NCBI RefSeq assembly: GCF_964204865.1
Contig: NC_135250.1
Span: 4,836,001 to 4,900,000 of the forward strand
From: Styela clava
Lineage: Eukaryota
Reading direction: 5' to 3'
DNA: 64,000 nt
The translations under genes and the position numbers were made by a program. The notes beneath the pieces were generated by a model. It saw only the letters and a list, made by a program, of their open reading frames with translations, was not told the origin of the DNA and made no database searches. This document shows positions 28,301-64,000 of this stretch, piece by piece (the stretch's first letter is position 1; the number at the start of each line of letters is the position of its first letter).

Positions 28301-28757
28301 TGTATTATGAAATGAATATTGTTTAAATATAAATACACTGGTATATGAAATGTGTTCCACAAGTGTTCTGTGAATGGTACAAGGGTTCCTCGAGTCTCCG
28401 GAATTTCATTGTTGTTCCGTTCCAATAAAAATGTTGTAATACATTGAATTATATAATAGTGGCCATAGGTTGAACATTTGTATTCGTTTTTTTTCGATAT
28501 CTTCATTGTATTGGAATTTTACAGACCAAAAATAGCGGAAATAACAATGCGTCACATACAAAGCGCAATACAGTGACAGCTTATAAAATGCCAATCTTAA
28601 CGGGGACGACATCCGCTATTGCGTTTCATAGATCACAAAGTTGACTCAACATTCGAACTTTAATATGTACCAACTTACAGAGACTCGTTTTTGTGTATTA
28701 TTTTCCACCCACCATGTCATACACTCATTAGCGGTTTCTGCTTTTTATAAAACTTCA

Positions 28758-31700: not shown

Positions 31701-32546
31701 TATTTCGCAACCCAGTCAACTACACAACTGCTAAAGCAAATTGTCAAAAGTTAGGAGCCGATCTTGCATCAGTGGGAGTGAGGAATGCTACCGTCCGCAG
31801 GTTAGGTGCTATTTGTTGCTAACATCAAGTAGACACATTACTTATATTTTAAATACATTCGGATCCCAAATAATCAGGTCAGTGGAGTTGGAATTTAGAA
31901 TTTGGCATGTTTTCTGCAGCCGGATTTAGAATTCCTGTATCCGGGGTCAAAGTTGGGGTCGAAATTTTAGAATTCCAATGGTAATAAAATCAGTTGAAAT
32001 TTTTTGCAGAAATATAGAAAAGCATTGATTTTTCCAAGCGTTTTAAACAGTCTATTGAAATAAAAATAATTTTGTGGCCCCTGAAGCCGACAACCTTAGA
32101 CCACCCTGGTTTAATTTAGGTGTTCATGGATAAGTATTATGGTGATAATAAAAACGAAAGAGTATCAATTATACTACGGCGAATATAAAGGTAGGAAATT
32201 CCTCCTCGTTTCAGAAATGTTGATTTGGGTCTTTAATTGTTTGATTACCTAACCTAAATTATATATATTTTATTGCAGCAAAATACTTCAAATGGTGAAG
32301 TCAGGGGAAAAAGATACTTGGGTTGGTCTGGATGACATCAATGAAGAAGGAAGATTTGTGTGGGCTGATGGCGTTATTTTAATAAAAGAGAATGCATATT
32401 GGAATGTTGGACAACCAGACGACTATGAAGACAACGAAGATTGTAGCGAATTCAGTGGTTATCAAAGTTGGAAGTTAAATGACGCTCGATGCTCAGACCA
32501 CCAATATTACATTTGCGAAAAAAGACCGTTTTTTTGGGATCAGTGA
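28758..32546 (+). CDS. CTL-D: C-type lectin, QPD motif, with microexon-encoded N-terminus and Ser/Thr-rich stalk (~250 aa)
   Basis: Exons 28758-28797 (start uncertain), possibly 29018-29032, then 29117-29184, 29815-29830, 30404-30427, 30538-30621, 31202-31300, 31653-31800, 32279-32546, all in frame. CRD has WVGLDD, WNVGQPDD, EDC, WKLND. CRD exons are secure; the first exon is not. Confidence 0.75.
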
Positions 32547-32563
32547 ATGAGATTCCTATAAAG

Positions 32564-35544: not shown

Positions 35545-36177
35545 ACGAGAATATCGGTCAGAGACCGAGGACTTATCGATCGAAAGTTAGGGGATCCTCC
35601 AAAACAGCGCTTTTACTCCATAGTGACACCTTGTGTCCCATCACTAATTAATTAATAACTCGCTAATGATACGACATAATTCATCCAAAATCAATAGGCT
35701 TCTGGTCCGACATATGATGAATGCACATGTAAAATCTGGAGCAGATTCAATCTCGTTTTCGTGAGATATCCCGTGCATCTAACAGACAGACAAGCAGACC
35801 GACAAACAGACAGACAAACAGGCAGACAAACAGACAGACAAACAGACAGACAAACAGACAGACAAACAGACAGACAAACAGACAGACAAACAGACAGACA
35901 AACAGACAGACAAACAGACAGACAAACAGACAGACAAACAGACAGACAAACAGACAGACAAACAGACAGACAAACAGACAGACAAACAGACAGACAAACA
36001 GACAGACAAACAGACAGACAAACAGACAGACAAACAGACAGACAAACAGACAGACAAACAGACAGACAAACAGACAGACAAACAGACAGACAAACAGACA
36101 GACAAACAGACAGACAAACAGACAGACAAACAGACAGACAAACAGACAGACAAACAGACAGACTAACAGACAGACAA

Positions 36178-36240
<63 letters not shown>

Positions 36241-36315
36241 AACAGACAGACAAACAGACAGACAAACAGACAGACAAACAGACAGACAAACAAATAGACA
36301 GACAAATACCTATCA
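35545..36315 (-). mobile_element. Helentron/DINE-1-like element, copy 2 (one end truncated), with expanded microsatellite
   Basis: Reverse complement of the 7379-8018 ends. Includes the TCGGTCagaGACCGA hairpin and the ACTTATCGATC subTIR. Confidence 0.72.
35782..36305. repeat. Compound microsatellite (ACAGACAGACAA)n
   Basis: Directly visible 12-bp higher-order repeat built from ACAG/ACAA tetramers, ~520 bp. Confidence 0.97.
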
Positions 36316-36577: not shown

Positions 36578-37575
36578 ATGTTCTGGGACAACTGAGAAAA
36601 AGTGTCAAAGCAAAAAGTGAACTATTTATCACTTTTTGAGACTGTTTTCAATATATTTTCCAAGAAATCGAATCATGATTATGAGTTAAAGTTATTATCA
36701 CAAACATCTATATCTACATATCATAGTTCTTTATTCGTCTCTATGCATTTGCGCAAGTGAATCCGTATGTTCTTGAGCCAGAAGTTATTTTCAACTTTAT
36801 GTATTTGTAAGATTTTTGTGAGATAAGCATTATAGTGAGTGCGGCTACCTAGTGTTCAAAGCGTTGGACTAAACCACGGATGTGCACCCAGGGCCCACAA
36901 GGAAAAATTGTGCGACCCGCGGAGAAATGCCGAATCTAAATGGTGTGCGTCCTGCGAAACGAATTTTTAATTTAATTCAATCGGGTGTGAGTAATTTCAA
37001 TATTTTTGCGTTGTAAAATCTATGACCGAGTCCAATTTATTATCTATGCATATGGCAATTACTAGGAAAATTACTAGGTACTAGAAAAATCGATCCCCAC
37101 TTTTCTCTAGAATTGTAGTATATATTTGAAGAAATCCTGATACCGTACCAACTGGCAAAAGTCGGAGGTTAGATTATTATGCTAAATTCAACTTTTTTTT
37201 CGAGGGTTACACAAAAAATTCTACTCTTCCTTGCATCTGCGTCAATGGTTTCGTCTGCGTATGATACAAGAATAATATCCCAAATTAAACAAATAGAACT
37301 GAGTGAATTTGTTAATATTTTTGTTGCAGCGAAATAATGCCATTGATCAAAGCTGGCAACTATCACGTATGGATTGGTTTAAGAAAATTTGAAGGTAAAT
37401 TCATCTGGGCTGATGGCGTAGATTCAACTGAAAGTAACACTGATTAGTATGCAGAACAGCCAGATAAATGGAAAGGTGACGAAATTGTGTACAATTTTAT
37501 CCTGTGGATACATGCAAGTTAAACGATGTACGTTGCACCATGGACATGAAATATATATGCGAGGCACGTGCTTAA
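36578..37575 (+). pseudogene. CTL-E: pseudogene relic (39-nt neck exon plus H-like terminal exon with QPD)
   Basis: Exon 36578-36616 encodes DVLGQLRKSVKAK. Exon 37330-37575 has TAG at 37445 in place of the conserved Trp and a 1-nt frameshift before CV. I found no first CRD exon and no 5' exons. Confidence 0.85.
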
Positions 37576-38934: not shown

Positions 38935-41492
38935 TCAAATTCTTTTCTCGCAAAGATATTTCATTGATATACTACATGTTATATCATTCAACTTCCACGA
39001 ATTGTCAGCGACGTAAAAATGCACGCAATCTTCACCCATTCCGTAGCCATTGGGTTCTCCTGTGTTCCAATCAGTATTTTCTTTAGTCGATTGTAAACCA
39101 TCAGCCCATATAAATATTCCGTCATGACCAATATCATCCAGGCCAACCCAAGTGTCATATTCCCCTGCCTTTATCATTGGAAGCAATTCGCTGCAATACA
39201 AACAAGAGATTTATGCTCAAATATAAGGATACGAAAGCCAAAACGAAGTAGTACCGGTATCAAATCTTTTACAGTAAGATATCGGTAGTCTTCCCGACCT
39301 CGACTGGCTGGTAATCCCGTGGTGTGTGTACCAGGTTAGGGTCAAGGCATAATTGTATTCCGATTTTCTTTATTTTAGTTCTATAACGAGTTCGGGGACT
39401 GTCTGTGTTAGTCAAATGAATATAAGCCCTGCCCATAGGATTCAGTCCCCTTACACAACTTGATATAATATATGGGAACAAATTAGTTGCCTTCATATTG
39501 GTAAACACACTTCTGGAGCGCCAACTGGCCACTGTCCATTTGCAATCGCAGAACCACCACACGGTGCGCAGTTTTGATTTGATGACGTCATCATACAAAA
39601 ACTTCAGAGTGAAAAACGAATTCCAAAGAAACGTTTTTGAAATAAATAAAAGTAAAGTAGCGTTCTAGCGACAAAAGCAATCTTCAACCACTGGAAATTA
39701 AAGCGGAAGCGATTACTAGAAGGCGATACTGACAGCCATAAAAAAACAATCCATAGATGTCAAATAGGCCGTGTAAGGTTGAATTGGTTTAAAAATCAAT
39801 ACAGCATTATTATTACTTGCGTATTGCAGGATTTCGAATGCCCACGGCCGCGATATCTGCTGAATAACTCTGAAAATTTGCCTTAGCAGTTGAGTAGTCG
39901 ACTTTATCGTTAAATAATATGTAGAAGTAATTGTTACTGGCTCGGTACCAAGTCTTGAATTTTTCTGTAATGTTCAAAAAAAATGAAAAAGAATTACGAG
40001 ATGGGCGTTTGGCAGGATAGTTCACAAGTTGTTAAAACTTATGAAAAGAACTGCCAAGCATTCGAATTGGAAATGACTCGAACATAGTAAGTTTGCAAAA
40101 TTCAAAATACATAGAGCCTATCACATTCCACTATTCATCAGCTTTTCAATGAAATATAGTCCTATCTGGTGCAGAATAATTGTCAAATACCAAACCACCT
40201 AATAATCAAACCCAAGTATTTCTTTCAATAATTATTTCTCAATACAATAAATGACTATTATATTTTACCATTCAACTCTTTTACAGCGACATCTTCTCTC
40301 ATTTGTTTGAGAACACCTAAAAAGTGGAAATTTATAAATTATCTAATCTTTGAATAACATGATAATATAATATTTCACATTGTTGCACAAACTTTTTCAA
40401 GGGAAAACTTTATTTCGACATTATGGCACGGAAAATTTTCATACAAAAATAATGAGTTTTCAATAGGAGGGAATGATGGCTTGTCACTAAAGCAAAAAAA
40501 AATTTGCGTCATTGACTAGGTCTTATGTAAGGGAATATCAGTGTCTGTTTACATAGAGTGGAAAGCGCGAATAAATGTCTTATGAAAAATGAATATTAGT
40601 TGAAATACATCTAATCTTCAAGTCTCATTATCTGATTCTGCTCTTGTGTCGGTACTCCTGTAGTATGTGAACCAAGATGTGAGTAAAAAAAACTATACCT
40701 TCAGCACTGGGATTGTTACAATCGCCAACAGAGACCCAACGTCCATCCTTCCACTTTGTAAGGCAGTGACCATCTGAATTTTAGATATGAAGAAAATTTA
40801 TAAATCAGTTGACTTTGGCAAAAATGCGTCGTTGCCCAGTTTACAACGCTTAGTCTGTATAGTTACGGTTGCAACGACACTAATATTTGAATGGAACCCA
40901 GAGACTGTACTGGGGGAGCGCTAGGATCCCACGGAAATCTCGTTGAAAACCACTGCTCTAAACCACGGGTGTGCAACCTGCTGCCCGCGGGACAAATGCG
41001 GCCCACAAAGAAAAATTGTGCGGCCCGCGGGGAAGTGACAATTTTGAATGGTGTGTGGCCCACGAAACGAGTTTCAATTTAGTTTAATCTAGTACGTGCA
41101 AGTAATTGAAACTCCTTTGAGTTGCAAAGCCTATTCTTGAGCCCGAGCAAAGCAAACAACGCATGTCATAAGACCAATAACCAACGTTTTTGTGCCTGCA
41201 ACTACTGGAATGCCTGCCTTGAATGAAGATGCGAACCGTGTATTTATTTGTAACTGCCCCTTCTGTAATAAAGCTTGCACACCCGTGCTCGAAACTATGG
41301 TCGCTTTCAAGAAGATCGTTTTTTCCTTCGGGCAGAATTGTATGAAAAATTATAATTGAGATGTTGTTATTATTACATCATAGTTTTGAATAATTCATAA
41401 AACATTATTTACTACATTACTGTTGTCTTACCTTGTTCAGTCATCCATATATTCGTCATAAAAATAAAACTGATAATGACAAAACATTTCAT
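38935..41492 (-). CDS. CTL-F: secreted C-type lectin, EPN motif (5 exons, ~195 aa); first CRD Cys replaced by Phe
   Basis: Exons 41492-41432 (MKCFVIISFIFMTNIWMTEQ), 40773-40699 (DGHCLTKWKDGRWVSVGDCNNPSAE), 40316-40269, 39964-39817, 39190-38935 join in frame (588 nt). CRD has WNTGEPNG..EDCV..WKLND. Confidence 0.85.
40964..41287. mobile_element. hAT-type MITE (GCGGCCCGCGG family; also ~36874-37040, ~42158-42460, ~46520-46773)
   Basis: TIR CACGGGTGTGCAA, flanks CTCTAAAC/CTCGAAAC. Confidence 0.8.
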
Positions 41493-42539: not shown

Positions 42540-45500
42540 TAAAACAACATCATGAGCGACAAAGATAAATCCGTGTGGGATCTAAACATCACTGACCAAT
42601 GTTTGTTTCTTAGAAGTGAATGTTCGTTAGGAGATCGATAGCGATCTGCATTTTGTAGTGACGAACAGCTTTAAATCTGTATTGCTAATTTCTAGCATGT
42701 TTTATCTTCAGAGGGCAACGAACCTTGATGGCATATTCTTTATTCAATGACCCCCATATGACGCTTCATTATTATTGTACAAGGAAATTGAATTGGCCTT
42801 TTAAGCTGAGGTGACGAAATAGCTCGAGCGCGATGCTTTATCAATGACACTATAGCATTTTACAATAATTACTATTCTAGAAATTTATTGGGTATATTTT
42901 TTAGCGAGGTTGTAGGTAGTATTGAATCGAAACTGTATTATAAAAAAGCTAAGGACCCGATAGCGTGTAATATAATTTCAATTTTTAAAAAAATGAGGTG
43001 GTCTATTTTGCAGAAAACAATTTAGCGAGATTTAATATTTAAAGCAAAATATACCAAAATAAAATTATATCTAATTTTTCTTGTAATTGCCATTTTACTT
43101 TTAGCCTGTTCAGCAAAACAAGGTAAGCTGAATGATACAATAACCTGCATTTTTGGCGCTCCCGTAGTATGTGCACCAAGATGGTGGACACCGGAACGTA
43201 CTATGTGTACCAGGTTAGGGTTAGGCCATAATTTTATTCCAATTTTCCTTCTTTCAGTTCTATTACGAGTTCGGGGAATAATCAAGTGACTCCCGTAGTA
43301 TTTGTACCTGAAATTAATGGCCCAACCCTAACCTGATACACATACTACGTTCCGGTGTCCGCCATCTTGGTTCACATACGGCATAAGTACCCAGTATTTT
43401 GTATAATAAAAATCAATTTTTTTGACAGTCGGTCATTGTTTTTATATAATACGTACTCGTACGTCAACTCCGAACAAAGCCTTGCACAGGCAGTCATCGT
43501 TGGGTGAGGATAGGCTTACCATATATAAAAAAAAACGAAGAATTGGACAAACCTTTGGTTCAATTACGAGGCTTACTTTGTATATAAAAATCTTATGAAT
43601 ATGATAACCAAATCATTAGAAAATGCGCTCTTTTTCGGCATTGTGGATAATTTAATGGCAGTACGGCTAAGATTAGATAATGAATTGAAATATTAAACAT
43701 ATATATAATAGTTATGACAGTAGTTTTCTCATTCTCTTACTGAAGTAGTGATGTGAGTCGCAAATCAGCAATAAAATAGACTCCCTCCATTAACATCCAT
43801 TGTCCCGGCTAAACCAGGACGTATGGATAAGCCTAGGTCAGGGGTGGGCAACCTTTTTCGGCTCACGTGCCCATATCGGCTAAATTTAACGACAAAATTC
43901 TTCCGCGTGCCAACCAAAATTAAAAACAATGCTTTGTTACTTTTAAAGCAAAAATACACAATTATAAACCTTCTAAACATGTAAGCTACAGACAGATTCA
44001 CTATTCGGGAAAATATCAGTCCGACAAATAGATTTTATTACTTTTCTTATTCTATATCAGTGATACTTCTGCTGCTGCATTACCGTTGATAGAGATTTAC
44101 ATTGAAAGAAAGTTACGAACTACTGGTTTCATCTTCCAGGTTACTCCTGTTATGAGACTTAATAAAGTTCATAACTGAGAAACTGTAGATAAAAACATGC
44201 AGTTGCAAAGTTTTTGAGGCACGAAAAATTCTCGGGAATGGCTTCCCAATCACGCGATAGTTCGTTTTCTGCACTTCTCTCTTGTATTCCCTTCTATAAT
44301 TGCTTATATTTCTTTCAAAATCAATTTATTTCGGTAAGTTAGCAAGTAACTCTAACCAACATGAGCTGTACAACCCCATAAATCAATCAGAAATGAAAAA
44401 AAATGGTGGCACAGACTATATATTACGTAACAATGAACCCCCCAATGAATGCTGTGTCTCGTTACAATTCGTCAAGAGCTAACTCAGTTGTTACGTCATA
44501 ATATATTTCTTTGTAGCCATATGTCATGAAAAGACAAAAAGAGTTTAAAATTTCAAATGAATAACAGATTGTTAACAAACGATAATGAATAAACAAACAC
44601 CGAGCTTCATCAGATAAATCAGAGCCTCGAAACTTTTTATTTGAAAGAGAATGATCTCGTTTCTGAGGCCTCGCTCGCGTGCCGAATAAATGGGCTCGCG
44701 TGCCAAGTTTGGCACGCGTGCCAGGGGTTGCCCACCCCCTGGCCTAGGTAAACCATAGCTTAATCTTCCCAGACCGGGATTGCTTAACCAATTTATAACA
44801 CCCGGGTGGGCACGGAATTTTAATCGGGATTTCAACATACGATGTCATAAGTTGAAGTCCAACGGATTACCCAGTTAGGTTACCGTGGCCCACTCTATTA
44901 CAAGAAGATTCCGGAGTTTTATTTAAAAAAATCAGAATTCTAACTAACTTTGATAAGTAAATTTTGCCATGGCGCAAAACGTGATCAGTATTCTATTCAG
45001 TTTACATACCGAGAGTGATAATTATGTTTTGGGTTGGAGCACAGGACTCAATCATGTTGACATCACATGTTATAAACCTCGGGTTCAAATCTCATGCGTT
45101 TCATTTACCCAGAAGTCGTTCGCTTTAGTACGGGGTTTTCATACTTAGCAGTTACTTACATGTCGTTAAATATCAGTGGCTGCTTCTGTACAAGGCCTTG
45201 TCAGGAGCGAATTAAACGGATACCTAAACGATCGTGGGCGACCGGTAGGCTCATATATTCTGTGATGTTAATTACGAAAACAATGATTATACAGGTCAAA
45301 CGTCGAATACCGAGCAAGCTTACGCAGAGGGTGTGTGAGTGAGGGTTAATCCCAATTATCTAAATAATGAGCAACGCTCGGAATATGAAACATAAGGTCA
45401 GATAACAGATACGACCACCGTAATGTCAGTAAATGATAATTTTATAAGAATTGCAACGTATGCAATATGAATATGACGTTATGATCCCAATTATCAAAAT

Positions 45501-45620: not shown

Positions 45621-48318
45621 CGTTTCTAGCAGTTGTGGTAGTGTCGACTTTACTTCGAGTGGGACGTTAAAACGCTACTTGCAGAAGTAAATTAGATTGA
45701 AAAGTTATTGAGAAAATGAATCTCTGCATTATAGGAACGCTTTGCTTGTTCATCATTAATATATCTTTGGTTGGAGGAGGTAATTTTTGCATTTTTAAAT
45801 TTTTTTTTATTTTATTTTTTTTTTATTGTGATAAGTAAGCACGAATGGGTGCGATGACCAAGTTGTCGAAGCGTTAGATTTAACTATGTTGGCATCGCAG
45901 ATCCCCACCTCACCCAGTGCGTAATAAAGTGGGAACTCTATGGCGAACCGAATATATATTATTCTTTACCTAATTTTGTTTGCCTACTTTACTTCTAGTT
46001 GTATAAAGGGAATGAAACCTGTGGGCAGGGGGTATATTTACTTGGATAACATAGGTATTCTCGCACTAGTAATGGAAATAAAACTAGGAAAATCGGAATA
46101 AAATTATTGTCTAACCTCAACCTGGTACATACACTACATACCTTGTTGTACCTTGTACCTTGTACCGAGCAGCGAGTACACCGTATAACAATTGGAAATT
46201 TTCTGAGTATTTTTCTGGGTCGTTTCAAATCTAAATACGTATTGTGCGCATTTATGTTCAGGTGGTCATTGTTATACAAAATGGAAGAATGGACGCTGGG
46301 TTTCGGTTGGAGATTGCAACAATCCCAGTGCTGAAGGTAATTTTATATTTCTATTAAATTTCGATTAATCTGAGTGGCGGTGTTAGAGTCGAAGTGTGAT
46401 TGTTGAATTACCAAGAACCTTTAGGTCCAACGTTGAGGAAACGGGATATAAGAATGTATAAACGACTTCTTTCTATAAGGAAATAAATTATAATTACATA
46501 CAGTGATTAATATTTTACAGCAGTGGTGTGCATCTGCGGCCCGCGCGCCAAATGCGGTTCACAAGGAAAAGTTGTGCTACGCACGGAGAAGTGCCAATTT
46601 GGAATGTTGTGAGGCCCGCGAAACGAATTTTTAATAAATTTAATTATAATTAACCAAAATTTTTGTGCATGCATCTACTAGAAAATCTATGTTAATTTGA
46701 ATAAACGTGCGACCCGCAGTTTCACCCGGTTATTTGTATCCGGCCCTCCTGTAATTAAGGCTGCACTCCCCTGTTTTACAGCATTCAGTACAGCGATTGA
46801 TTAAACCCAAATATAGGGAAATTTAAAATAAACAGTCTTGAGAAATTGAGAAAAACATATATTTTTGATTTTTAAACTTCAACTTTTTTATTGAAACACT
46901 TTGGTGAATATGTCTTTAAACTTTGATTAGAAACTTAGTCTAAAAAGCAACTATTCTTTGTAAGTTTGTCGTTTTTTTTTTAAATTCAATATTCGTCTTT
47001 TTGTCTTAGATGGTTTAGATATTTTTTTATTTTAAACTTCTGTGTCAAATCTTTTTCAATGCATTTAGTATACCTGGCTTCCTGTCTCGTGATTTTTCGA
47101 AAGGTTTACTCACTAATTAAATTAGGCCTATTGTGTCTTGGCAATAAAAAATAAACGCTCTCACATTTTACTAACTCGAACTTCAACCTTTATTTATAGA
47201 TGTTCTGGAACAACTGAGAAAAAGTGTCAAAGCAAAAGGTGAACTATTTATCTCATTTTGATTTGAACTAATTTTGAGACTGCTTTCAATATCTTTTACC
47301 AAAAAATCGAATCATAAAAATGTTATAAATTCATTATCACAAGCCAAGAGCATATGGCGTATAAAATTTATTGATTCCACAATTTCTTTAACATGCTCTG
47401 CACATGCATAAGTTGAGTTTACCGGATGTAAATTAAGAATTAGCGTACGGCGATGGCTTATTATGGCTCTAAAATAGTAACGCCGGAAATTTAATTATAT
47501 ATATGTATATATTATTATATAAATATGTACAGATGACCTCAAGACATGGGATAAATCAAGCAACAATTATTATTACAAACTATTTCGAGACCCAGTCAAC
47601 TACGCGACTGCAAAATCAAGTTGTCAAAAGTTAGGAGCCGATCTTGCATCAGTGGGAGTAAGGAATGCTATCGTCCGCAGGTTGGTTGATTATTTTTGGA
47701 AACATCAAGTAGACATATTACTTGGCATATGAATTACTTAGATTTTAAAATACATTAGGATCTCATTAATCATGGCTATATGGAACCACAGTCGGATTTT
47801 TAAAATACCCGGATTCTGAAATTGTAGTCAAATTTACAAAGCTTTCCTAATTAACAGTGTATCGAATTGCATAGCCAAAGCTTTTGTTGTTATTAAATGT
47901 TAAATTTTCTCGGAAATGTCGTCGGAGCCAAAATGTTTTCAACCCAGAATCGTTGAAGTTCGTTGAAGAGCATTTTTAAAATATGATGCCCAAAAGATTA
48001 CCTCAATTTAAAGAATTTTAACTTTTTGATTGAATAATTTGAATATTCATTTTTATTTGCAGCAAAATACTCCAAATGGTAAAGTCAGGAGGAGAAAATA
48101 CTTGGGTTGGCCTGGATGACATTGAACACGAAGGAAGATTTGTTTGGGCTGATGGCCTTATTTCAACAAGAGAGAATACCGATTGGACTGCTGGACAACC
48201 GGACGACTACGGAGAGAATGAAGATTGTGGAGAGTTCAATCGTGACCAAAACTGGAAGTTAAATGATTTCCGATGTTCAGAACGCCAATATTATATTTGC
48301 GAAAAAGGACGATTTTAA
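43059..48318 (+). pseudogene. CTL-G: mosaic C-type lectin, QPD motif; frame intact but start codon is ATA
   Basis: Exons 43059-43122, 46262-46336, 47200-47238, 47533-47680, 48063-48318 join in frame (582 nt). ccaaaATAAAATTATAT replaces the ccaaaATGAAATTATAT of C and H. Confidence 0.75.
43839..44741 (-). mobile_element. hAT element, longer relative of 32564-33119
   Basis: TIR CAGGGGTGGGCAACC with perfect TSD GCCTAGGT. Absent from the paralogous site near 24615. Confidence 0.9.
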
Positions 48319-50206: not shown

Positions 50207-53200
50207 TTAAGCACGTGCCTCGCATATATATTTCATGTCTCTGTTGCACGCTACATCGTTCAAATACCATTTATTCTCAGGCCAAAAATGTACACAGTCT
50301 TCGTCACCTCCCGAATTACTTGGCTCTCCTTCATGCCAATCCGTATTAATTGGAGTTGAAATCACGTCATCACCCCAGATGAATTTACCTTCAAATTTGC
50401 CTAAACCAATCCAAGTAAAATCGTTGCCAGCTTTGATCAATGGCATTATTTCTCTGCATCAAAAAAAAACAACAGATTAACATAGTTAACTTATTTCCGT
50501 ACATATACGGATCCACCGACGAGGTAGAGCAGGTAAGGGAAAGTAGATATTTTTGCTTGTGTTCAATGTTGCTTTCTCATCTACACCCTCCTGGTAAGCT
50601 TCATTGCGCGATGTTCTCAGTCAATAGTTAATTAAATATTTTGTATTCCCCCCAAAAAATAATGTATGACTCAAAACTTTGTCTGCTGCGCATCTGATGG
50701 ATAAAAATGGTAACTAAAACTCACAATGCTTATCTCACACAAATGTTACGAATAAATGAAGTCGAAAACATCTTTTGACTCCAGAAAATACGCACTTGCA
50801 CAAAGGCATAAAGCAAGAAAAGCTAATTAGACTCCCGTAAACCCAACTGATAGTTTGAAAATATTCAAGTTTAAATTTTTCAATCACCTGCGGACGGTAG
50901 GGTCTCTAACTCCAGTAGATGCCAGATCCGCCCCTCGTTTCTGGCATTCTGATTTTGCTGTTGCGTAATTGATTAGATCGTTGAATAGTTTGTAATAGAA
51001 ACCGTTGCTTGCTCGGTACCAGCCCTTGAATTCTGTTTAAAACACGAATAAAGAACTATGATATCTAGCTAGATGTTTCTTTCATTGATATTACAAGATA
51101 TTCGTCTTAGCGGTGAGCGCATACTAGATAACCCCCGGTGCTTAGCATTGACCGAGAGGCTTTAAAGCATGGTTGTCCAACCTTTTTGGCCAAAGTGCCA
51201 CATTTAGTTCACGAATGATTGCGCGGGCCACTTGACATGGTTGTTATGTTTTAGTTTTCACCAAAAAAAACTCACATTAAAATTATAAAAAGAATGAAAA
51301 TACAAAGATACAGTAAGGCAAATTTTTTATCACACATGTATATTTCAATGTCAAGTATGACGCCGCTTTCATCCAATAAGTTTGTCATTGTTCGGTGCGA
51401 TGAACGATGCTGCAATGCGAAGCGAATTTTTCATATGACTGTCAGAAATTGGCGATCTCACGGGAGATTTGACAAGGTTCATTCGCGACAAAACTTCCTC
51501 GTACAAGTAGCCTAAGTGCTGTCAAATATTGAGGTCATCAAAACTGCCCCTTTTAGCTTCATGGAAAAAAGACAGAAAGCAGATTGAAATACATGGCATA
51601 CGATAAAAATAAATTCAAACATCTCTTTCCCGCAATAACGCTCACAAAGGGACATAAATAGTCTTTTGATAGCTGGGTGGTGCTTCTCGCGCGTTTGAAT
51701 AACGAGAAATATTTTATTTATCAGATGTTTCAATAATGGCTTGTGAAAAAATTGAGATTCGAATAATACCACGCGGGCCACTCGGAAACCTTCGGCGGGC
51801 CACGGGTTGGACAACCCAGCGTTTAAAGCGTCAGATTTGACAATGTCGGAATCGCAGATTACACAGAGGAATTGTGAAATCTTTGACTTTTAAACTTCTA
51901 TACACCATACGCTCTTCACTTGTGGTAATAAATTTACAACATTTTCATTCGATTTCTTGGTTAAATATATTAAAAACAAACATAAGTCCAATTCAGAATG
52001 AGATAAATAGTTCACCTTTTGCTTTGACACTTTTTCTCAGTTGTCCCAGAACATCTTTAAATAAAGGTTGATCTTTAAATAAAGCCTATACCAGTACCCG
52101 GGTGCCACTGTAATATCAGTGAAACTAGCTAGCAAGATCTTGTTGGAAATACACGATGTTATAAAAGCGTGTTTCTGCCTAACTGAATTCGTTTAAATTC
52201 GGTGTGACAACAAATTTAAATAAAAGTTTTCTTTAGAAATTTTTGCGTTTTTACTCAAAATTTCTGCCAGGACCCCGAACAATGCCGTAAGATTAATAAC
52301 CAAAATATAAAGATTTTCTGCATACGAAAGTCCAAAAACCGAAAACAAAAAACGCGTGTATTGACATTTGTTTATTTCAAGTTAATTTAATGCAGTGCTT
52401 GAACCAGGGATATCGCGAACTTCAAATATCGTTTTTCGTGTTTGTAAGAATATCGAATATAACCCACATATCCAAGCGCCACGGCCGCTAACGTTTTGAT
52501 TTGAAACATTTTACAATTATTTCATTTTTTATCGTAATCGAAGGCAGTCGTGTGTGGCGCGGCAGTAAATTAAAGTTGGCATGAAAGAATTTCAATTATA
52601 GCGCTGACTTGAAGTTCTTATTACTAGGGCTGGAAATTTCAGGTGAAATACTTTAACCGTTAACCAGGTAAAATCAACCGGTTAACCGATAAACCGAATC
52701 GTGACATTTGATGTAATAGTTTACAATGTTAGCTTGTTACGTCACAATGGTTAATAGAAGCAATTTCGTGTGATCTGATCTTATCCCGGTATCGCTCAAA
52801 ATTATTTACGAATCGAGATAATTTCATGATCGCTCTGCTGCAAGAGATATGCAGCGTGCTTCGGACATATGGAAGTATTTTCGTAATAAAACCCGAATCC
52901 GTTAAATGTCATTTATGAGACAAGTTTTCAGTGTGTTCGACATGCAAATTCTACTCTGTGATATCATGAAGGAAAACGTCATCAACTGCGCGCTTGTTGG
53001 ATGACATCAAATATACATATTTTGTAATAAAATCTGGAACAATAAATTTCGCACGGTATCTAATTCTGAACTTATCATTGTCAAATGTTCATAATCAGAA
53101 ATCTTGGTACTTCAATTATTTTTCACATTTATTGGTTCCTTACCAATACAGTTAATGATACTATTTTAAATTAAAAGCCGCAGAAGATAAGTTTGCGATG

Positions 53201-56200
53201 ATGTAATCATTTTTGAAGAAATTGTTCGTTATAAAAAAGATTTCTACTCGAGTCAGTAAACAGTTAAAATAAATCGTAACCGGTAACCATCTAAAATCGG
53301 TTAACCGATTAATCGTTAACCATTCCCAGCCCTACCTATTACACGTCGAAGATGTTTCTGATTGAAAATATTTTACAATTATTATCGTGTATTTCAATTT
53401 TGTCGAGATAGTTTGGGCGGCCTCGGCAATAAATCTAAAAGCAAATTGTGTAAATTATTGTGTACAACCTTTCATTTTGATAGTGATCGAACATAAGAGC
53501 ACATTTTCTCATTTCTTGCAATAAGCAGTTTAAGTTGACGGTATTAATTTATAAACAAAAATAAAATCATAACAGCCGATATGAAAAATCAGCGCCGACT
53601 CGCAATATAAAAGAAGATCTCCGGTCCTAATTCTCTTTTATTGGCCGATGGGAATTTGGGAATAAGGTTTACTCATTTGATAATGACAGTGATCGCGTAA
53701 ATATATTTGCGTTTTACTTAATAAACGTATGGTGTCGTGAGCAATATAAAAACTAAATTTATAATAGCTGCCCTGCCACTAGCCAATCAACTATCTGTCA
53801 TGCCATTAGTCCTCTTTTTCATGTGCGTGTGCTCATTTTCGTACATAACTTTCTCTCTTAGATTTCAACTTTTAACGCATCATCCTCTCACCTCCTCCGA
53901 TCACCGTCCTCCCAATCTCCACGGTCTTCGCTTAAGTAGTCAAATATTACGTCCGAATTTTGTGGGGGCTTGGAACGGATAAATGTATTTTCAGGTAAAA
54001 AGCGTCCGTACTTACGAAATTTTCTACTTGCAAAGGGGCTTAGAACAAATTAATTTTGTTCCAATTACGGAAGCCCCTTCGTAAGTAGAAAATTCTGTGA
54101 GGTACACATGATAAGAAAAGAGAGCAGAGAAATAACAAATGAAAACTACAAATTTTTCATATTCAGAGACTTTCGTAGGCGGAGTTTGTATTTGGCCCTT
54201 TCGTGAAAAAGGTTGCACACCCCTGAGCTAGGCCATCGCGTTCAACTAAATAACACGGGTCGAGTTAACGCCGATTATTAATTACCTTCGGTATCAGTAG
54301 TTTCGCAAGATCCCTCAGATATCAAACGACCGTTCTTCAATTTTCGAATACATAATCCATCTGTGTGATTGAAATAATATTGAATGATAAAAAGGTTAAA
54401 GACGAAACTGTGTATGAAGTCAAAATGTTTTGGGAGGTAGTTCAGTTTTGATAGACGCTACTAGATTTCTAGAACGAAAGCATGTCTTAGGATTGTTTAT
54501 ATATAATCGGACAGAAAGTGGACCGTTTGCAAATCTATTTGTGTTAGTGTGCAGCAAGAATTTTTAATAGGATAGTCATGTTTATTCCTGCTGCAGCATC
54601 CTTGCATTATATGCATACGGATCTAACAGAGGAAGGGTATTGAGAAAGGATAGGGGCAAAAAATACTAATCTACTAACCAACTTATCAATTAATAGGTTT
54701 TGAATTTGTATTACACGTGGATAAAGTGCTGCAAGAACGAAATGTCATATTTCTTAATTTACGCTAAAGTTTTGCTGGTTTTTATAATTCACCGACACAC
54801 GTTAATATGGCATTCGGTGAAAATTTTCTATAATCAACACATTGACATAACAATGGCCATATCTTTCCTTTGACCTTCTGCTTCATATTTGAACATTTCT
54901 CATTATTTTGATAATTGGGATCATAACGTCATATTCATATTGCATTCGTTGTTATCATTTACTGACATTACGGTGGTCGTATCTGTTATCTGACCTTATG
55001 TTTCATATTCCAAGCGTTGCTCATTATTTAGATAATTGGGATTATACCCTCACTCACACACCCTCTGCGTAAGCTTGCTCGGTATTCGACGTTTGACCTG
55101 TATATTCATTGTTTTCGTAATAAACATCACAGAATATATGAGCCTACCGGTCGCCCACGATCGTTTAGGTATCCGTTTGTTTCGCTCCTGACAAGGCCTT
55201 GTACAGCAGCGGCCACTGATATTTAACGACATGTAAGTAACTTCTAGGTTTGAAAGCCCCATACTGGAGCGAACGAGTCTTGGGTAAAGTGGAACGCATA
55301 GGATTTGAACCCAAGATGTGTAACCTGTGATGCCAACACATTTTGGTTCATTGCTCCGACCCAAGACATATTATGAATATTAGTATTTAAACTAAATAGA
55401 ATACTGATCACGTTTTGCGCAGTGGCAAAATTGACCTATCAAAGTTAGTTAGAAAGTTTTGTAATGAAGTGGGCTGCGGTAACCCATCTGGTTAATCTGC
55501 TGGACTTTAACATCGCTGGTTGAAATATCGAGTTGAAATTTCGTGCCCACTCGGGTATAATAAATTGAGTATACCCAATTGCCTATAGGCAATGCCGGAC
55601 TGGATTAAGCTATGATAGCTCTTTAACTTGGTTTACCATACGTCTTGGTTTGGCTGGGACAGTCCCGATTTTGACAAGCTGTCCAGTCCGATAGACCCAA
55701 ATGTCCCGGTCATGTAGTATGGAAGTCATGAATATTTTTTTTATTTGATATCGATACAAAGTATCTTTTTAATCTTAATAAGGCAGTCTATTTATCGCTG
55801 GTTTCCGACTCACTTCCCTACTTCAGTAAGTGAGAGAGAACTATTATATGTCATAATTATTATATGTTCAATTTTCCAATTCATTATCTAATCTTAGCCG
55901 TACTGTCATTAAATTATCCAAAATGCCGAAAAAGAGCGCGTTTTCCAATGATTAGAATATCAATACTATTCATAAGAGTTGTATATACTAAGCCTCGTAA
56001 TTGAACCAAAGGTTTGTCCAATCCTTCGTTTTTTTATATTTATATGGTAAGCCTATCCTTACCCAACAGTGACTGCCTGTGCAGAGCTTTGTTCGGAGTT
56101 ATTGACGTACGAGTACGTATTATATAAAAACAATGAACGACTGTTAACAAAATTGATTTCTATTAAACAAAAAACTGGGTACTTATGTCGTATGTGAACC

Positions 56201-56507
56201 AAGATGGCGGACGCCGGAACGTAGTACGTGTACCAGGTTAGAGTTAGGCCATTGATTTCAGGTACAAATACTACGGCAGTCACTTGATTAGTCCCTGAAC
56301 ACGTAATAGAACTAAAAGAAGGAAAATTGGAATAAAATTATTGCCTAACCTAACCTAACCTGGTACACATACTACGTTCCGGTGTCTGCCACACATACTA
56401 CGGGAGCGCCAAAAAATGAAGGTTATTGTATCATTCAGCTTACCTTGTTTTGCTGAACAGGCTAAAAGTAAAATGGCAATTACAAGAAAAATTAGATATA
56501 ATTTCAT
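50207..56507 (-). CDS. CTL-H: secreted C-type lectin, EPS motif (5 exons, ~189 aa)
   Basis: Exons 56507-56444, 54360-54286, 52054-52016, 51032-50888, 50453-50207 join in frame (570 nt). CRD has WIGL, WHEGEPSN, EDCV, WYLND. Confidence 0.85.
51168..51820. mobile_element. hAT-type MITE
   Basis: GGTTGTCCAACC / GGTTGGACAACC termini, flanks CTTTAAAG/GTTTAAAG. Confidence 0.7.
52625..53334 (+). mobile_element. Deleted hAT (Ac-like) element with BED zinc-finger relic
   Basis: TAGGGCTGG...CCAGCCCTA termini, flanks CTTATTAC/CCTATTAC, subterminal TTAACCG repeats, and a frameshifted MQRASDIWKYF..SVKCHL from ~52849. Confidence 0.8.
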
Positions 56508-59500
56508 TTTGGTATATATTGCTTTAAATATTAAATCTCGCTAAATTGTTTTCTGCAAAATAGACCACCCTCATTTTTTTTTAAAATATTACACACTATC
56601 GGGTCCTTAGCTATTTTATAATACAGTTTCAATTCAATACTCCCTACAACCTCGCTAAAAAATATAACCAATAAATTTCTAGGAGAGATTATTGTAAAAT
56701 GATATAGTGTCATTGATAAAGCATCGCGCTCGCGCTATTTCCTCCCGTCAGCTTAAGGCCAATATAATTTCCTTGTACAATAATAATAAAGCGCCATACA
56801 ATATGATGGGGGTTATTGAATAAAAAACATGTCATCAACGTTCATTGCCCTAGGAAGATAAAACACGCGATAGATGAGCAATACAGATCTAAATCTGTTC
56901 GTCATTACGAAATACAAATCTCTACCAATCTTCTATAACGAACATTATTCTCTTCTAAGTTGCAGAAGCGAACATTGTTCAGTGATGTTTTGATCCCACA
57001 CGGATTTATCTTTGTCGCTCATGATGTTGTTCTAAGATTTTTTAGCATGTAACATGAGTCCTACTTTCATTATAGACAAGCGGTTCCCAAATTTTCTGTT
57101 CGTGCGGCGCCAAATTTTCAGGGAAAATCTCACGGCACACTTACACGAAAAAAATGCTTCTTTCGAAGAAAACTCATTTCTGTGATCGCCAATGTGTACT
57201 TTATGCTATTTAAAGTTTGTGAACATGTATGACTATCGAAAAATTGCAAAAGGTCAACTCTTCTTTTTCATCTCCGCCTGATTTTCCTCTGTTATGCTAA
57301 ACACTCATATTCGCTAAATTCGGTTCAGCTGATAAATAAACAGCACGGAGTGAGGTTCACGTAAGCCTTAGCATATATATTATGATTTTCGCCACCATTC
57401 TAGTTTGCGAGACTCCGAAGATAAACTGAGAAACATGTTTCAGCTATAACTAACTATAGCAAAAACGAGTCATGTCCGAAAATATGACTTCAATAAAGAA
57501 AATTGAAGAATTCACCTCGACCTTTGGCAGACAGAAAAAAAAATGGCGGCGATTCCAAATTTATGTCTGAACAAATTCGAATAATTTACTATTTGATTCG
57601 ACATGACCAGTTCTACTGGTAATCGAGCAAGGGGCTTTTGTCCACAATCTGAGTCTTTGAACGAGTGGAAAACAAAAATTAAAAAGTAATATTGATGACG
57701 TCTGCCGTTTCTTGCCAACGAATATTCGAAGATAGAGCCGTAATTGAATCAAGGAAAATGACTTGGAAGCTCCTTGTTCGTTGCCCAAAATGTATATTGG
57801 AATTAGTGCTAGGCATTTTTGAAAACCTGATGATTTCAGAATCGAATATTTTTTTCGAAATGAATCTCGAAGATTTTCAACTGTATGTGACATGTTTCAT
57901 CAATATCTCACAAGAAAGAAAAGAGTCATATTCCGAAATTACGTTGTTAAAGCATGGCTTCGATAAAAAAAAAATAAGGAATTTACCTCAACCCTTTATC
58001 GGTGATTCGAAACTCCCGTCTGAACCGGTTCGATAATTTTCGATTCGATATGCCCAGCCCTAATTGGAATGTGCTTCAATCAATATCCATTTTGTAATAA
58101 GTCGATTTCTCGGGATTTAAATGTCGAGAACTTTAGGATCATATCAAATATTCTCCGATAAAAATGACTGAACTTATCTTTATATACAATTATATATAAA
58201 AATGAGCCTCCAAGTAACGCAGAAGCAGTTCATTGTATGAAAACTGACACATGAGAGTTCAAAATTTTCTTCCACTACCCTCGTATCAAACATGGCGAAT
58301 ATTCGGTTGCTACCCAGCCAATATGACTCAACAAAACACACGAATGGTAGGTTGTAATGATTTCCGTGTCTGCTGATTGAGTAAGTCTCCATTTGGTATG
58401 ATTTGAATATGAACTGTATATATATATGATCTACAAAAATATTCTTGATCTATACTTCCGTTATGTATAAACTCATTAGATAGCCTATTCACACCGTCTG
58501 TGACAATGTTCGCAAGCGGTGTAGCTTTCCATGGCTTAATGTCTTACCAGAAGAAAACTTTAGTCTAGGATTGAGATCTGAAGTCTGATAAGCATGTTTC
58601 AATTGTGTTACGCCTAACCAGCATAAGAATTAAACTACAGCTCAGCTTACGTGTGTACTGGGAGTAGTTTTATAATAGTGAATCCTTGTATATTGCGACT
58701 TGAGGTGAAATTCTGGATCAAGATTAGTGCCATAAAAGGGGAATATGACGTACCCGACGTAGAGATTATTTAATTACGTTGAATCCAAAACAATCGAGTA
58801 AAAATTGAAATAATTTGGAGTGTAAAAAAAAAAGCCTTGTTTATTGTCTTATGCTAGATGTTTTTTAACAGAGACTCGGCCTACCTAAGGGGCTATGAGC
58901 GTTTCTATAGAAGCCACAAACGCGCCTTCACTATGTACGATAGGCGGTGACTATATTGATTTAAAGTAAATTGGCAGTGATCTGTCTCCAATTTTGACTT
59001 TATTTCTTTGCTCTATTGTTTTTAGTAGTATTGTTTAGTAGTATGAAAAACGACTGATAGAAGCGTGTTATTAGCAAATCTAGGTGTTTTAATGAAGCAC
59101 AAGGGCTGACAGTCTTTTGAAGAGTATCGCGCGCGAATCAGGGAAGTTCGAGAATCACTCGTCTAATGATTTACCATCGAAACTGGTAAAAAGTTGTTTC
59201 TTCAACATGAAGGCTGGGATCGAAATATTTCTTCTGATTTTACTTTTACAAACTACAAACAGCCGTGTCAATGGTATGAGTTTGATCTGGTAAACTTTAA
59301 AACTTTCTTGTACCTTGAAGTATTGATTACCGTTTTCCTAGTTATAAAATGGTAATATCAGTAGCATTAAATTAGGGTTCCACCAGTACAGTCCAGGGTT
59401 TCACTAGTTTACTTTCAGTTCCGATAGTCTGTATTATGAAATGAATATTGTTTAAATATAAATACACTGGTATATAAAATGTGTTCCACAAGTGTTCTGT

Positions 59501-59886
59501 GAATGGTACAAGAGTTCCTCGAGTCTCCGGAATTTCATTGTTGTTCCGTTCCAATAAAAATGTTGTAATACATTGAATTATATAATAGTGGCCATAGGTT
59601 GAACATTTGTATTCGTTTTTTTTCGATATCTTCATTGTATTGGAATTTTACAGACCAAAAATAGCAGAAATACCAATGCGTCACATACAAAGCGCAATAC
59701 AGTGACAGCTTATAAAATGCCAATCTTAACGGGGACGACATCCGCTATTGCGTTTCATAGGTCACAAAGTTGACTCAACATTCGAACTTTAATATGTACC
59801 AACTTACAGAGACTCGTTTTTGTGTATTATTTTCCACCCACCATGTCATACACTCATTAGCGGTTTCTGCTTTTTATAAAACTTCA

Positions 59887-62267
59887 ATGTATACTTCTCA
59901 TTTACCGCTTTTAACTAAACTTTCAGGTATGCTTTTTTCAAATGTTGTAGTAACATAAACCTTCATTTGAAAAAGAGTTTGTAGTTGAAGAATACAAGCG
60001 TTGAAATTTGAAAATAAATGCTAAGGAGGTCCTTAGATGGAGTTCTCACCTCTTTCGATAGAACAATGTCTATTCACACTTTTGTCAACAATTACCATGT
60101 GTAGCTCATGATAGAAGCGTTCATTGTTATTGTATTTTAATTGCAGGAATCAATTTTTATGGTCAGAATTTATTTAGACACTGGAAATTCCGATTTAATA
60201 TCACAATATTTTTATAATTAGCTCGTATTATATTTTATCATTCAGGAAACTCGAACGAACCCTCCTGTACTGAGGACAGAGGCAAGAAGACTTTTCAAAT
60301 AAACTTTTCCTCGGTGAGCGTAGCATTATGCAATATACTTTCATACTAGGTCTTTTATGCAATGATACAGTAGTAAAAAATACGGCAACAATATATCAAT
60401 ACTGATACAATAACTAGAAAATAATAAAAGACCCAAGTACATACCGAACACAGCAGGAAGGAGACTAACGTTAGCACCTCCTTCGGCTTCATGTCGATTG
60501 TTTACGTTCGCGCGTCGAAAGCGATTGAGCGTAAAGATCACGTGACCAACAAGAAACCACTCGGGGCGCAATTGTACAAAATTTGCGATGAAACTGGAAG
60601 CCTATAAGAAATGTTAAAAATATAAAAATAATAACCATTTAGCCTAACCCTAACTACAGAAAATTAGTAACCGATAGGCTTGGTTGGCACTTAATAGGAG
60701 AAGCAATTTTTCGCCTGTGTGAACTCCAAGAATTTTTCTGAACTTATATTTCGATCGTATTGTTTCATCGTTATCGTTAAGACAAAGTCAAGCAAAATCT
60801 AATTAACGATATTAGCCCACGAAAAGATGTAATCGAAATGGTATTTCCCAAACAATATTATAGGTTTAGATTAAAAAAACTTAGATTGTAATTGTATCAC
60901 AAATTTATTATATTCTAACACTTCGATTTTCTTTCTTCTCAGGTTGCTGATCTGAAAAGTAAGTGTAAAACATATTATTTTGGAAACGAAAATGAAAATC
61001 GGTCTTCTACAGAGTGGGGCGAATAAATCTCCGCATTCTATTTAATTAGAAACTGCCTTTTTAATCACCTTAACTTATTTAATAAATCTGGGATGATAAT
61101 ACAACGCTACCTCCAAAGAAAGTATTGGTTCGCTTCAGCGTAGACGTGAAACAGATACAGGAAGTTTGACTTAACAAGTTTAAACAGGCTATGCGGTAGG
61201 CTAACAAATCGGCGCTCCGGCAGTATTTGTACCAAGATGACGCAAAACCTGAACCCTAACCTGGTACACATACTATGTTCAGGTTGTGCGCCATCTTGGT
61301 ACACATACTTCGGGAGCACCAACAAACCCTATATTTTTTATCGTTAATATTTAAAAGCTTGACATGTTTGAAACTTCACAATAACGCAGATTAATATCCA
61401 TTAGGTATCATTGATATTAATTTGTTTTGAGCATTCTTCTGAAATCGAATTACAAAAACAATTCAAATAATTCAAAATGAGATAAAAGAATATAGGCTAC
61501 AACTTCTAAAGTGCTATGTTAATTTACTCAGAAAAGTTGTTGATGCCTAAATTCCGTAAGTTTCTAGCCAGGTAATACTACTAATGCAGTTTTCATCGAA
61601 TGTCGATAAAGTAATCCAACGAATAAATACTTTAAAACCATTTTAAAAATATAAATTTTGTGCAGAAAAATTAAGAAACAATCTTGACCTACAACGCTAC
61701 TTGGAAGAGAAACTATCGACAAATGCAGAAGAATATGAAATCACAACAGGTTATTGTTGTATTTGTCTTCACTTATTTTTGCTCCAGTATTCATTACTTT
61801 CTCCCATGAACCTGGGAATTCTATTTTGTTTTTCACATAAGGAAATTCGCTCAATGCAAGGTTCCGAGCACTCACTCAGAGGTGTCATTAGTTAGTGAGA
61901 CAATAATGAAATATAATGTAGAATTGAGATTGACGCGAGACATGAAGAATAGGATTGTCCTGTTTACCTTTAGGAACAGGAAAGTCGATTAGTTGGCTTA
62001 ATCAAAGGCCGTACCACGGTCTCTCGTCCTGTCCATGTCGGGTATGATATTAGTTAGCCAGTTATTTGTTTTCAGATATTTCGACTTGATGGTCGGTTGC
62101 ATCATTTCAGTTAATATGTTGTATGACACAGTCATAGTAAGAAGCCATTTTATCGAACTCATTTTTAACTACTCGAATATTTACCAAAATGGTAACTTTC
62201 CCGTTTAAAAACTACAATACGGGGTAGGGCCTACTTTTCGAACAATGAGCTCTTCAACTCAAACAAT

Positions 62268-62298
<31 letters not shown>

Positions 62299-63891
62299 GG
62301 CCCACTAGTCTTGCTTTATGATCGGCGAATGATTATTTATATTTTACAGTTCTTCAATCTATCGATCCTCAACTAAGTGAGACAGCAGCTACTTCTTCAC
62401 AGATGGAAACCACTCATGCTGAAATGACAACAGAAAAATCAACTACTGGTATAATATATATGTTTACTTCATATATATTTAGGTGCTGGCAGTCCATCAA
62501 GAATTGAATTGGATTTTGTGTACATTATATGTTTGTGCATTTTTCTAGTTTAAGAAGGCACCCGTCGACCTCCGTTTTTTTTTTTTGTTAAAGAAATCAG
62601 AAGGCTAAAAAAATTCAAATAGAAAAATAGAATGAACAATATTTTACCCTATCAATTTCGGGTCGAGGGTCCTTATCCTGTAAACACATTAGTTATATTT
62701 AATTTTTGCGGAAAGCGCCCATCCGAAAAAAACACCTTCAACCACTGCCAAAACAAGTGCTAAAACTCAAAATGTCTTGGCATGTTTTTCTAAAATCTCA
62801 CACTTTTGGTAAATCCCCTTCTTGGCGTCAGGAATTTATTCAGTCAAATCAATATCCCCCTCCGCTTACAGCTTCTTTTTGTCCAATCTAGTACGATTAT
62901 TCGCCATACTCGTCTGACCATCAAAATAAAATAAAAATTTGTATCATATTGAATCTATTTCCCCATATATGTACAGACGACCTTAAGACATGGAATAAAT
63001 CAAGCAACAATTATTATTACAAACTATTTCGCAACCCAGTCAACTACGCGACTGCTAAAGCAAATTGTCAAAAGTTAGGAGCCGATCTTGCATCAGTGGG
63101 AGTAAGGAATGCTACCGTCCGCAGGTTAGATGCTATTTTTAAAAACATCAAGTAGACATATCACTTGGCATATGTAGTGCTTAGAATTTAAAATACATTG
63201 GGATCTCAAATAATTATGAGAATGGAGCCGCCGTCGGATTTTTAAACTTTTCGGGTTTTGGAATCGTAGTCAAAACCCAGAATTTTCCGTAGGAATCAAT
63301 GGAAGATTGCATACGCCAAAGCTTATGTTATTAGCAAAGCATTAATAAATGTTGATTTTTCTCGAAACTAGAGTCGAAGCCGAATCGTTTTCAGACCGGA
63401 ATCGACATAAATTGTGAATTTCCGCCATATCCTTGTGGATAGTGAGTTGTAAAAATTCAATATGCAAACTACCTTATTATTTTTGAGTATAAGAGATATT
63501 TTGCAAAATTTAAACATTTCATAACATTTCTGATTTTTGAAGAGCATTTTTGAAAAGTGATGCCAAAGGATTTACTTCATTTCATCAAGGATTTTAATTG
63601 TTTGACTAAATTATTTGAATTATATATAAACATTATTGCAGCAAAATTCTTCAAATGGTGAAGTCAGGAGGAAAAAGGACTTGGGTTGGTCTTGATTACA
63701 TTGAACAAGAAGGAAGATTTGTTTGGGCTGATGGCGTGAATTCAACAAGAGAGAATACAAATTGAAATGCTGGACAACCAGACGACCATAGAAAAAACGA
63801 AGATTGTGGCGAGTTCAGTCGTTACATGAATTGGAAGTTAAATGACGTCCCATGTTCATTGTTCCAATATTATATTTGTGAAAAATCTTAA
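59887..63891 (+). pseudogene. CTL-I: paralog of CTL-D, QPD motif, premature stop in CRD
   Basis: Exons 59887-59926, (60147-60161), 60246-60313, 60943-60958, 61532-61555, 61666-61749, 62350-62448, 62977-63124, 63642-63891. TGA at 63763-63765 replaces the conserved Trp four codons before QPD. Confidence 0.85.
62266..62294. repeat. (CA)n microsatellite
   Basis: Direct observation. The paralogous position near 31125 has a shorter CA run followed by (TA)n. Confidence 0.9.
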
Positions 63892-64000
63892 ATGGGATCA
63901 GTGAATGAGATTCCAATTAAAGATTTGTTATAGCGTGAGGTCTACCACACCATAGCTGGAGACGTATATAGTAACGTAACTTAAGGTCAAGGGTCAAATC

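Follow-up and report, generated by a model that had tools for sequence, protein, structure and literature searches.

The 64,000-nucleotide stretch of the Styela clava genome analysed here (hereafter the window) contains four genes, G, F, C and H, in which the signal-peptide exon is directly followed by one 25-codon exon, as had been predicted from the sequence. Each of these exons is 75 nt long, with an AG acceptor, a GT donor and phase 1-1 boundaries, and the encoded peptides agree with those quoted in the original prediction. In gene G (+ strand), the signal-peptide exon (45716–45779, matching the N-terminus of NCBI protein P0003) is followed by an exon for a Cys-x14-Cys predicted hairpin and an acidic linker (46262–46336), an exon for a 13-residue amphipathic helix, or neck, which forms the second half of the conserved unit described below (47200–47238, also phase 1-1), and two C-type lectin exons (47533–47680 and 48063–48318; the second has PF00059 and QPD and LND motifs). 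Joined, these exons give the exact translation of P0003, a 193-aa S. clava lectin model that includes the hairpin exon and is 100% identical to the last exon of G. The head scored 50.8 bits against PF00059 (cut-off 22.6), and Foldseek matched it to DC-SIGNR and TC14 with a probability of 1.0.

The other three genes lie on the - strand. Gene F consists of a signal-peptide exon (41432–41492), a hairpin exon (40699–40773), a helix exon (40269–40316) and a lectin head of two exons (38935–39962, ends approximate), in which Phe replaces the first conserved lectin-domain Cys (39816–39962), so that the head may be impaired. In gene C, a signal-peptide exon (25324–25387) and a hairpin exon lacking Trp (23176–23250) precede the helix and lectin head (21136–22631, ends approximate); the short helix, read from the sequence, shares an exon with the first part of the lectin domain (22457–22631), and lectin exon 2 follows. 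Gene H has a signal-peptide exon (56444–56507), a hairpin exon (54286–54360), a helix exon that NCBI model P0050 skips (52016–52054) and a head of two exons (50207–51032). Gene D (28081–32547, +), used for comparison, and its duplicate I (59208–63892, +; in-frame stop in the last exon) have related lectin heads without the hairpin module. They lie in near-identical duplicated blocks (27000–32550 and 58090–63900, +), and close relatives of D carry a helical and Thr/Ser-rich stalk instead of the module.

The hairpin and helix exons of G are 95% identical to those of gene J, the next gene past the window (G000:C1 near 4.904 Mb), whereas its two head exons are 72% and 59% identical to J but 92–94% and 82–83% identical to the module-less D and I. 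Identity of H to C is 98% over the signal-peptide exon and 96% over the hairpin exon; its helix exon is 98% identical to G and J, and its two head exons 90% and 98% to J. With exons that match different genes, G and H are exon mosaics, which shows that heads and N-termini were swapped recently, most simply by recombination in phase-1 introns. Upstream of G lies a solitary signal-peptide exon of the C/H type (43059–43122, +), an orphan copy whose start codon has become ATA; it is followed by pieces resembling the first intron of H, and is likely a trace of the rearrangement that created G. A lectin relic, E (36579–37575, +), has a helix exon 95–97% identical to those of G and H and a last exon disrupted by a stop and by a break in the frame; we found no hairpin exon or first lectin exon in it.

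The hairpin exon and its conservation

The hairpin exon is a real exon and not a chance reading. The pattern C-x2-K/R-x2-N/D/K-G-R/K/H-x4-G-x-C matched four times in the six frames of the window and not once in 100 base-shuffled copies. Contigs from two of four read runs (X5 and X10, from two studies) splice position 46336 to 47200 over a GT..AG intron, joining the hairpin exon to the helix exon, which agrees with the expectation that the exon is present in transcripts; note that the contigs are "transcript-like", the RNA status of the four runs being the tool's guess and none being recorded as RNA. The X10 contig differs from gene G at four positions within the 75 nt of the hairpin exon, suggesting that it represents a paralog or an allele. 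The hairpin exon was without coverage in run X7. A Cys-rich frame at ~46520–46600 is a dispersed repeat rather than an exon, and the splice joint passes over it. Purifying selection acts on the hairpin core, with a pN/pS of 0.14 over eight G-type copies and 0.34 over 28 copies.

We compared the module among 32 NCBI-modelled proteins and 37 further loci (40 sampled, minus three whose match was offset or broken). Cys1, Gly8, Gly14 and Cys16 are invariant in the 32 proteins, with zero indels, and apolar residues are kept on both faces of the hairpin (positions 5/10 and 2/11). AlphaFold2 placed strands at residues 26–30 and 33–37 and a helix at residues 45–62/63 in both P0003 (lectin) and P0159 (fibrinogen), supporting the predicted N-terminal Cys-x14-Cys beta-hairpin in two unrelated host proteins. 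Confidence in the hairpin was moderate in these monomer models (block pLDDT about 62–78), and the head of the P0159 model failed, with a mixed alignment. Cys25 and Cys40 probably form an intrachain bond. Six Cys are present from the module onward in 13 of the 16 proteins counted, so the two module Cys can pair together. Alternatively, these Cys might cross-link subunits, as in the N-terminal segments of collectins, rather than close the hairpin. Passages of PMC6272597 describe both inter- and intra-monomer bridges made by collectin N-terminal Cys, and the Cys pair lies two residues off strict hairpin register. However, the 14-residue spacing, free of indels in 32/32 proteins, and the invariant Gly that precedes the second Cys by two residues would fit a closed, bulged loop, and we regard interchain cross-linking as very unlikely.

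The hairpin had also been predicted to have a tryptophan-zipper core. Tryptophan zippers have two cross-strand Trp pairs flanking the turn. G-type copies resemble them in having Trp-x-Asn-Gly-Arg-Trp round the turn, but the module has one Trp pair at most, and the family does not conserve Trp: both Trp occur in only 6 of 32 proteins, and Trp is absent from 20/32 proteins and from all 37 further loci. This part of the prediction therefore fails. The net charge of the core is +1 to +3 in the 32 proteins and 0 to +2 in the 37 further loci (0 to +3 overall), and that of the whole 24-residue exon is -3 to +3 in the 32 proteins, with a mean of +0.5 and values of -2 to -3 in fibrinogen members. Hairpin antimicrobial peptides are strongly positive, typically +5 or more, and are released as free peptides. 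Among the 32 proteins, the hairpin is single-copy, always joined to a head and never a stand-alone gene, and an acidic linker follows it. Although G and its close copies combine a cross-strand Trp pair with a +2 core, and the core is never net negative, the missing Trp, the low charge and the fusion to a head make a trpzip-like membrane-active antimicrobial hairpin, whether released or tethered, highly improbable. Hence, of the two activities first suggested for the module, cationic membrane activity is not borne out.

Position 4 is Lys or Arg in 32/32 proteins and 37/37 further loci, and position 9 is basic in all. Together, these residues could form a site on the hairpin where a common partner docks, for instance a MASP-like protease or a receptor on phagocytes, thereby taking the place of the MASP-binding collagen lysine of mannose-binding lectin (MBL), a role that would be compatible with oligomerisation. 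However, Asn/Asp-Gly-Lys/Arg is also a sequence favoured by a tight beta-turn. A conserved Lys is central to the binding of MASP by MBL (PMC6272597), and MASP is reportedly activated by two collagen-less proteins, GBL of Halocynthia and the ficolin of amphioxus (PMC8605247, PMC11312191). Descriptions of GBL give it an N-terminal coiled coil, and it is absent from the matches of a profile search of 5.8 billion proteins (see below), which argues against docking through this module; overall, we consider docking rather unlikely. We rejected Asn-Gly-Arg, an integrin-type motif, as a family function; Arg is found there in 19/32 proteins and 1/37 loci.

Conservation extends into the helix. In 28 of the 32 proteins (four without a helix or with an insertion were left out), apolar residues occupy positions 8, 9, 12 and 16, counted from the second Cys (28/28), position 13 is Arg or Lys (28/28) and position 7 is Asp or Glu (27/28). 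The hydrophobic moment of the helix at 90–100 degrees (0.36–0.39) does not exceed that at 180 degrees (0.37). Hairpin and helix occur together in 29/32 proteins; NCBI models P0050, P0163 and P0171 join the hairpin directly to the head, and may be annotation errors or real. In the majority clade, a phase-0 intron divides the 75-nt exon into 59 + 16 nt (donor in 37/37 loci, micro-exon in 34/37), yet the outer phase-1 boundaries are retained despite the extra intron, and the helix exon pattern is found 3' of the hairpin in 27/37 loci, ~3 of which look like chance. From these alignments, the conserved unit is a Cys-x14-Cys predicted hairpin plus an acidic linker and an amphipathic helix, roughly 40 residues in all (the cassette). 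In the C13 clade (L103:954-1016 and further copies on G000:C13), the donor of the split hairpin exon appears to be GC.

Consistent with the earlier view that the module is not a named domain, neither the four window peptides nor the N-terminal regions of 26 proteins had a Pfam match that exceeded the cut-off, and PDB profile searches, which are insensitive for 24–40 residues, gave best E values of 0.35 and 0.08. ESM Atlas, an insensitive search, returned nothing for the module in two queries, and a VIA wide search with the P0159 model, with its failed head, found no Z >= 5 among 48,161 chains; such blanks do not by themselves establish the module as new. A phage lipoprotein family, PF24052, was rejected: it scored 12–18 bits against a required 27, the resemblance had an E of 6–7, and the phage protein examined is without the second Cys. 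A Drexlerviridae lipoprotein (MN013075.1, L115:155-382) has about ten residues in common with the first strand and turn of the hairpin, by chance or convergence. Literature searched by listings and abstract openings held no description of the cassette, and there is no account of the hairpin module in the portions of PMC5465252 and PMC2527998 consulted; the N-terminal cassette apparently has no name so far, although the primary papers on Halocynthia GBL and ficolins or on S. plicata collectins may already describe it.

Distribution of the cassette among head domains

Peptide searches of the S. clava genome located the hairpin module at 132 or more distinct loci on 13 contigs, a lower bound obtained with five peptide queries from the genome itself at E limits of 0.5–1; 81 of these loci were inspected. 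The 81 heads comprise 21 canonical C-type lectins, 45 divergent lectin-like domains and nine fibrinogen domains, with none detected at six loci. The first 41 loci account for 21 canonical, 11 divergent and six fibrinogen heads and three partial relics to which no head was assigned; 40 loci sampled from the 73 found later account for 34 divergent heads, three fibrinogen heads and three loci with no head within ~7 kb. The 32 NCBI-modelled proteins have 13 canonical, 16 divergent and three fibrinogen heads, and PF00147 identifies the fibrinogen head in P0158, P0159, P0161 and loci L084 and L118. Thus, the module does sit on lectins, as first proposed, but not on lectins only. The fibrinogen heads, the at least 132 loci and the conserved amphipathic helix in the next exon had all been missed by the original prediction. 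A QPD, EPN or EPS plus x-ND motif, a candidate sugar-binding Ca site 2, is present in 10/10 canonical members checked; the divergent lectin-like heads, the largest class, lack QPD/EPN-type motifs. Two fibrinogen-type module genes, L116 and L117, lie head-to-head (G000:C2 near 9.197–9.199 Mb), each with a helix exon whose frame is lost at a poly-A run; in L118 the helix exon is intact at that position.

Divergent-lectin and fibrinogen heads both occur with the unsplit hairpin exon (contigs C10, C16 and C3, C17) and with the split exon (contigs C13, C5, C18 and C2). If the intron was gained or lost only once, this would mean at least two exchanges between head superfamilies. A cassette tree (27 proteins, 39 columns) required four label changes, with a minimum of two and half the branches open; the direction of swapping is beyond its resolution.

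The profile search of 5.8 billion proteins yielded 32 matches among 1,055 candidates, all from S. clava. This weakly suggests that the cassette is restricted to S. clava, since the same search missed most majority-clade members even in that species. A search of 1.84 billion proteins, which used all 193 columns and whose output was dominated by lectins, had the module in four of its 150 best matches. Metagenome scans gave 0/124 and 3/117 candidates; the three were rejected as chance matches, two being without both Cys and the third without the second Cys.

A putative oligomerising stalk

The same cassette precedes unrelated heads, suggesting that its job is independent of the head. In related S. 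clava lectins, the equivalent slot holds other stalks: a collagen-like and coiled-coil stalk in P0057 ('collectin-11-like'), and a Thr/Ser-rich stalk in P0005 and P0006. Parts of PMC6272597 describe this N-terminal slot as the one that oligomerises collectins and ficolins. Self-association is the most likely role for a unit that does not depend on its head, sits in a collagen/coiled-coil slot, and has an apolar face on its helix and apolar residues on both faces of its hairpin, which a lone two-stranded hairpin could not bury. We therefore propose that the cassette is, somewhat more probably than not, a collagen-free oligomerising stalk common to secreted recognition proteins, like the collectin/ficolin scaffold; it is this half of the original suggestion, oligomerisation, that stands as the best inference. 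Secreted proteins with the cassette before lectin, divergent lectin-like or fibrinogen heads would self-associate, with the short helices bundling into a coiled coil and the hairpins packing on one another to cap and nucleate the bundle. The oligomer would most likely be a trimer, by analogy with collectin and ficolin heads. Clustered heads would provide avidity and multivalent target binding, and the proteins may act in pattern recognition, an immune role assumed from the head families. Points against the stalk reading are the shortness of the helix (~13 residues), its hydrophobic moment, the moderate confidence in the hairpin, the three models that omit the helix, and the lack of such a stalk in TC14 (see below). 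A complex prediction with three copies of residues 22–66, in which the alignment was not used, scored 0.02, with an uncertain fold, and speaks neither for nor against this reading.

A monomeric mini-domain or spacer could account for the apolar faces just as well; here the hairpin would pack on its own helix as a small rigid stalk or folding aid without self-association. Such a fold is consistent with the co-occurrence of hairpin and helix and the survival of the unit despite the extra intron, and AlphaFold2 folds the two elements in a single chain. However, it would bury only one face of the hairpin, yet both are apolar, and it leaves unexplained why the cassette sits in the collagen/coiled-coil stalk slot of related heads; we consider it unlikely. 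More speculatively, the cassette could be S. clava's own collagen-free, Ig-free universal stalk, one that both multimerises and docks a lectin-pathway protease or phagocyte receptor and that was swapped repeatedly among heads across >130 loci. We view this combination as distinctly doubtful. If true, it would constitute a third independent recognition system with interchangeable heads, this one belonging to a chordate, and would explain the link between complement and the collagen-less lectins of ascidians.

An oligomerising stalk would invite comparison with several known systems. Collectins and ficolins, as outlined in sections of PMC6272597, are secreted proteins in which a Cys-containing N-terminal scaffold and a helical neck bear a C-type lectin or fibrinogen head. 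Collectins carry the C-type lectin head after the neck, and P0003 has a predicted helix at residues 45–62; the neck-plus-head of its model matches neck-head structures of collectins (SP-D, SP-A, CL-K1, MBL), DC-SIGNR and langerin. The fibrinogen C-terminal heads of P0158, P0159 and P0161 recall ficolins. By contrast, the region that separates signal peptide from head holds no Gly-X-Y collagen in any of the 32 module proteins, these three included, and the S. clava scaffold is ~40 residues long and includes a hairpin predicted to be closed. Gastropod VIgLs (FREPs, CREPs and GREPs), in the account given in parts of PMC5433772, are likewise an expanded family with a shared N-terminal scaffold and interchangeable fibrinogen, C-type lectin or galectin heads, but their scaffold is one or two Ig domains rather than a hairpin and helix. 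No Ig Pfam match was found in 26 module proteins, in which only ~40 residues separate signal peptide and head, and there was no galectin head among the 81 loci examined. On sequence grounds, the cassette family belongs to neither group, having no collagen and no Ig domain. The arrangement known from collectins/ficolins and from snail FREP/CREPs, in which one stalk serves many heads, recurs here on a third and much smaller scaffold. In this invertebrate chordate, the cassette is what unites a large family of genes for secreted proteins, most of them labelled 'uncharacterized'. The S. clava genome study counts 25 MBL and 54 ficolin genes as expanded, in the part of PMC7540406 available; some of these may be the collagen-less module genes described here.

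Among ascidian proteins, Halocynthia roretzi GBL is also a collagen-less plasma lectin, one that works with MASP (PMC8605247, in part), and differs in the coiled coil noted above. It is possible that GBL or ascidian ficolins share the cassette, the comparison here resting on descriptions of these proteins. The head of gene G resembles that of Polyandrocarpa TC14 (1BYF, E 4.6e-10), the closest solved ascidian lectin, which is a 125-residue head only and is without such a stalk. The T4 fibritin foldon offers a working analogy: this small beta-hairpin domain terminates a coiled coil and nucleates trimer formation (PMC13766278). The S. clava module differs in having a Cys pair and in sitting N-terminal to the helix. 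The foldon was not matched in PDB profile searches to E 10 or in the VIA search, weak tests for 24–40 residues. The cassette is small enough for synthesis and, if it trimerises, would be a compact natural oligomerisation tag.

Elsewhere in the window, one open frame (4135–4650, -) encodes a universal stress protein domain (PF00582, 81 bits), from a family that is patchy in animals. Exons at 951–2043 (+), which drew only a sub-threshold, unrelated Pfam match, have a look that we take to be that of a theta-class glutathione S-transferase. Exons at 13331–15980 (-), with no Pfam match, resemble another divergent gene of the C-type lectin-like kind, one that has a coiled-coil stalk but not the hairpin module, and a long simple tandem array of AGAC/AAAC units covers ~500 bp at 35800–36300.
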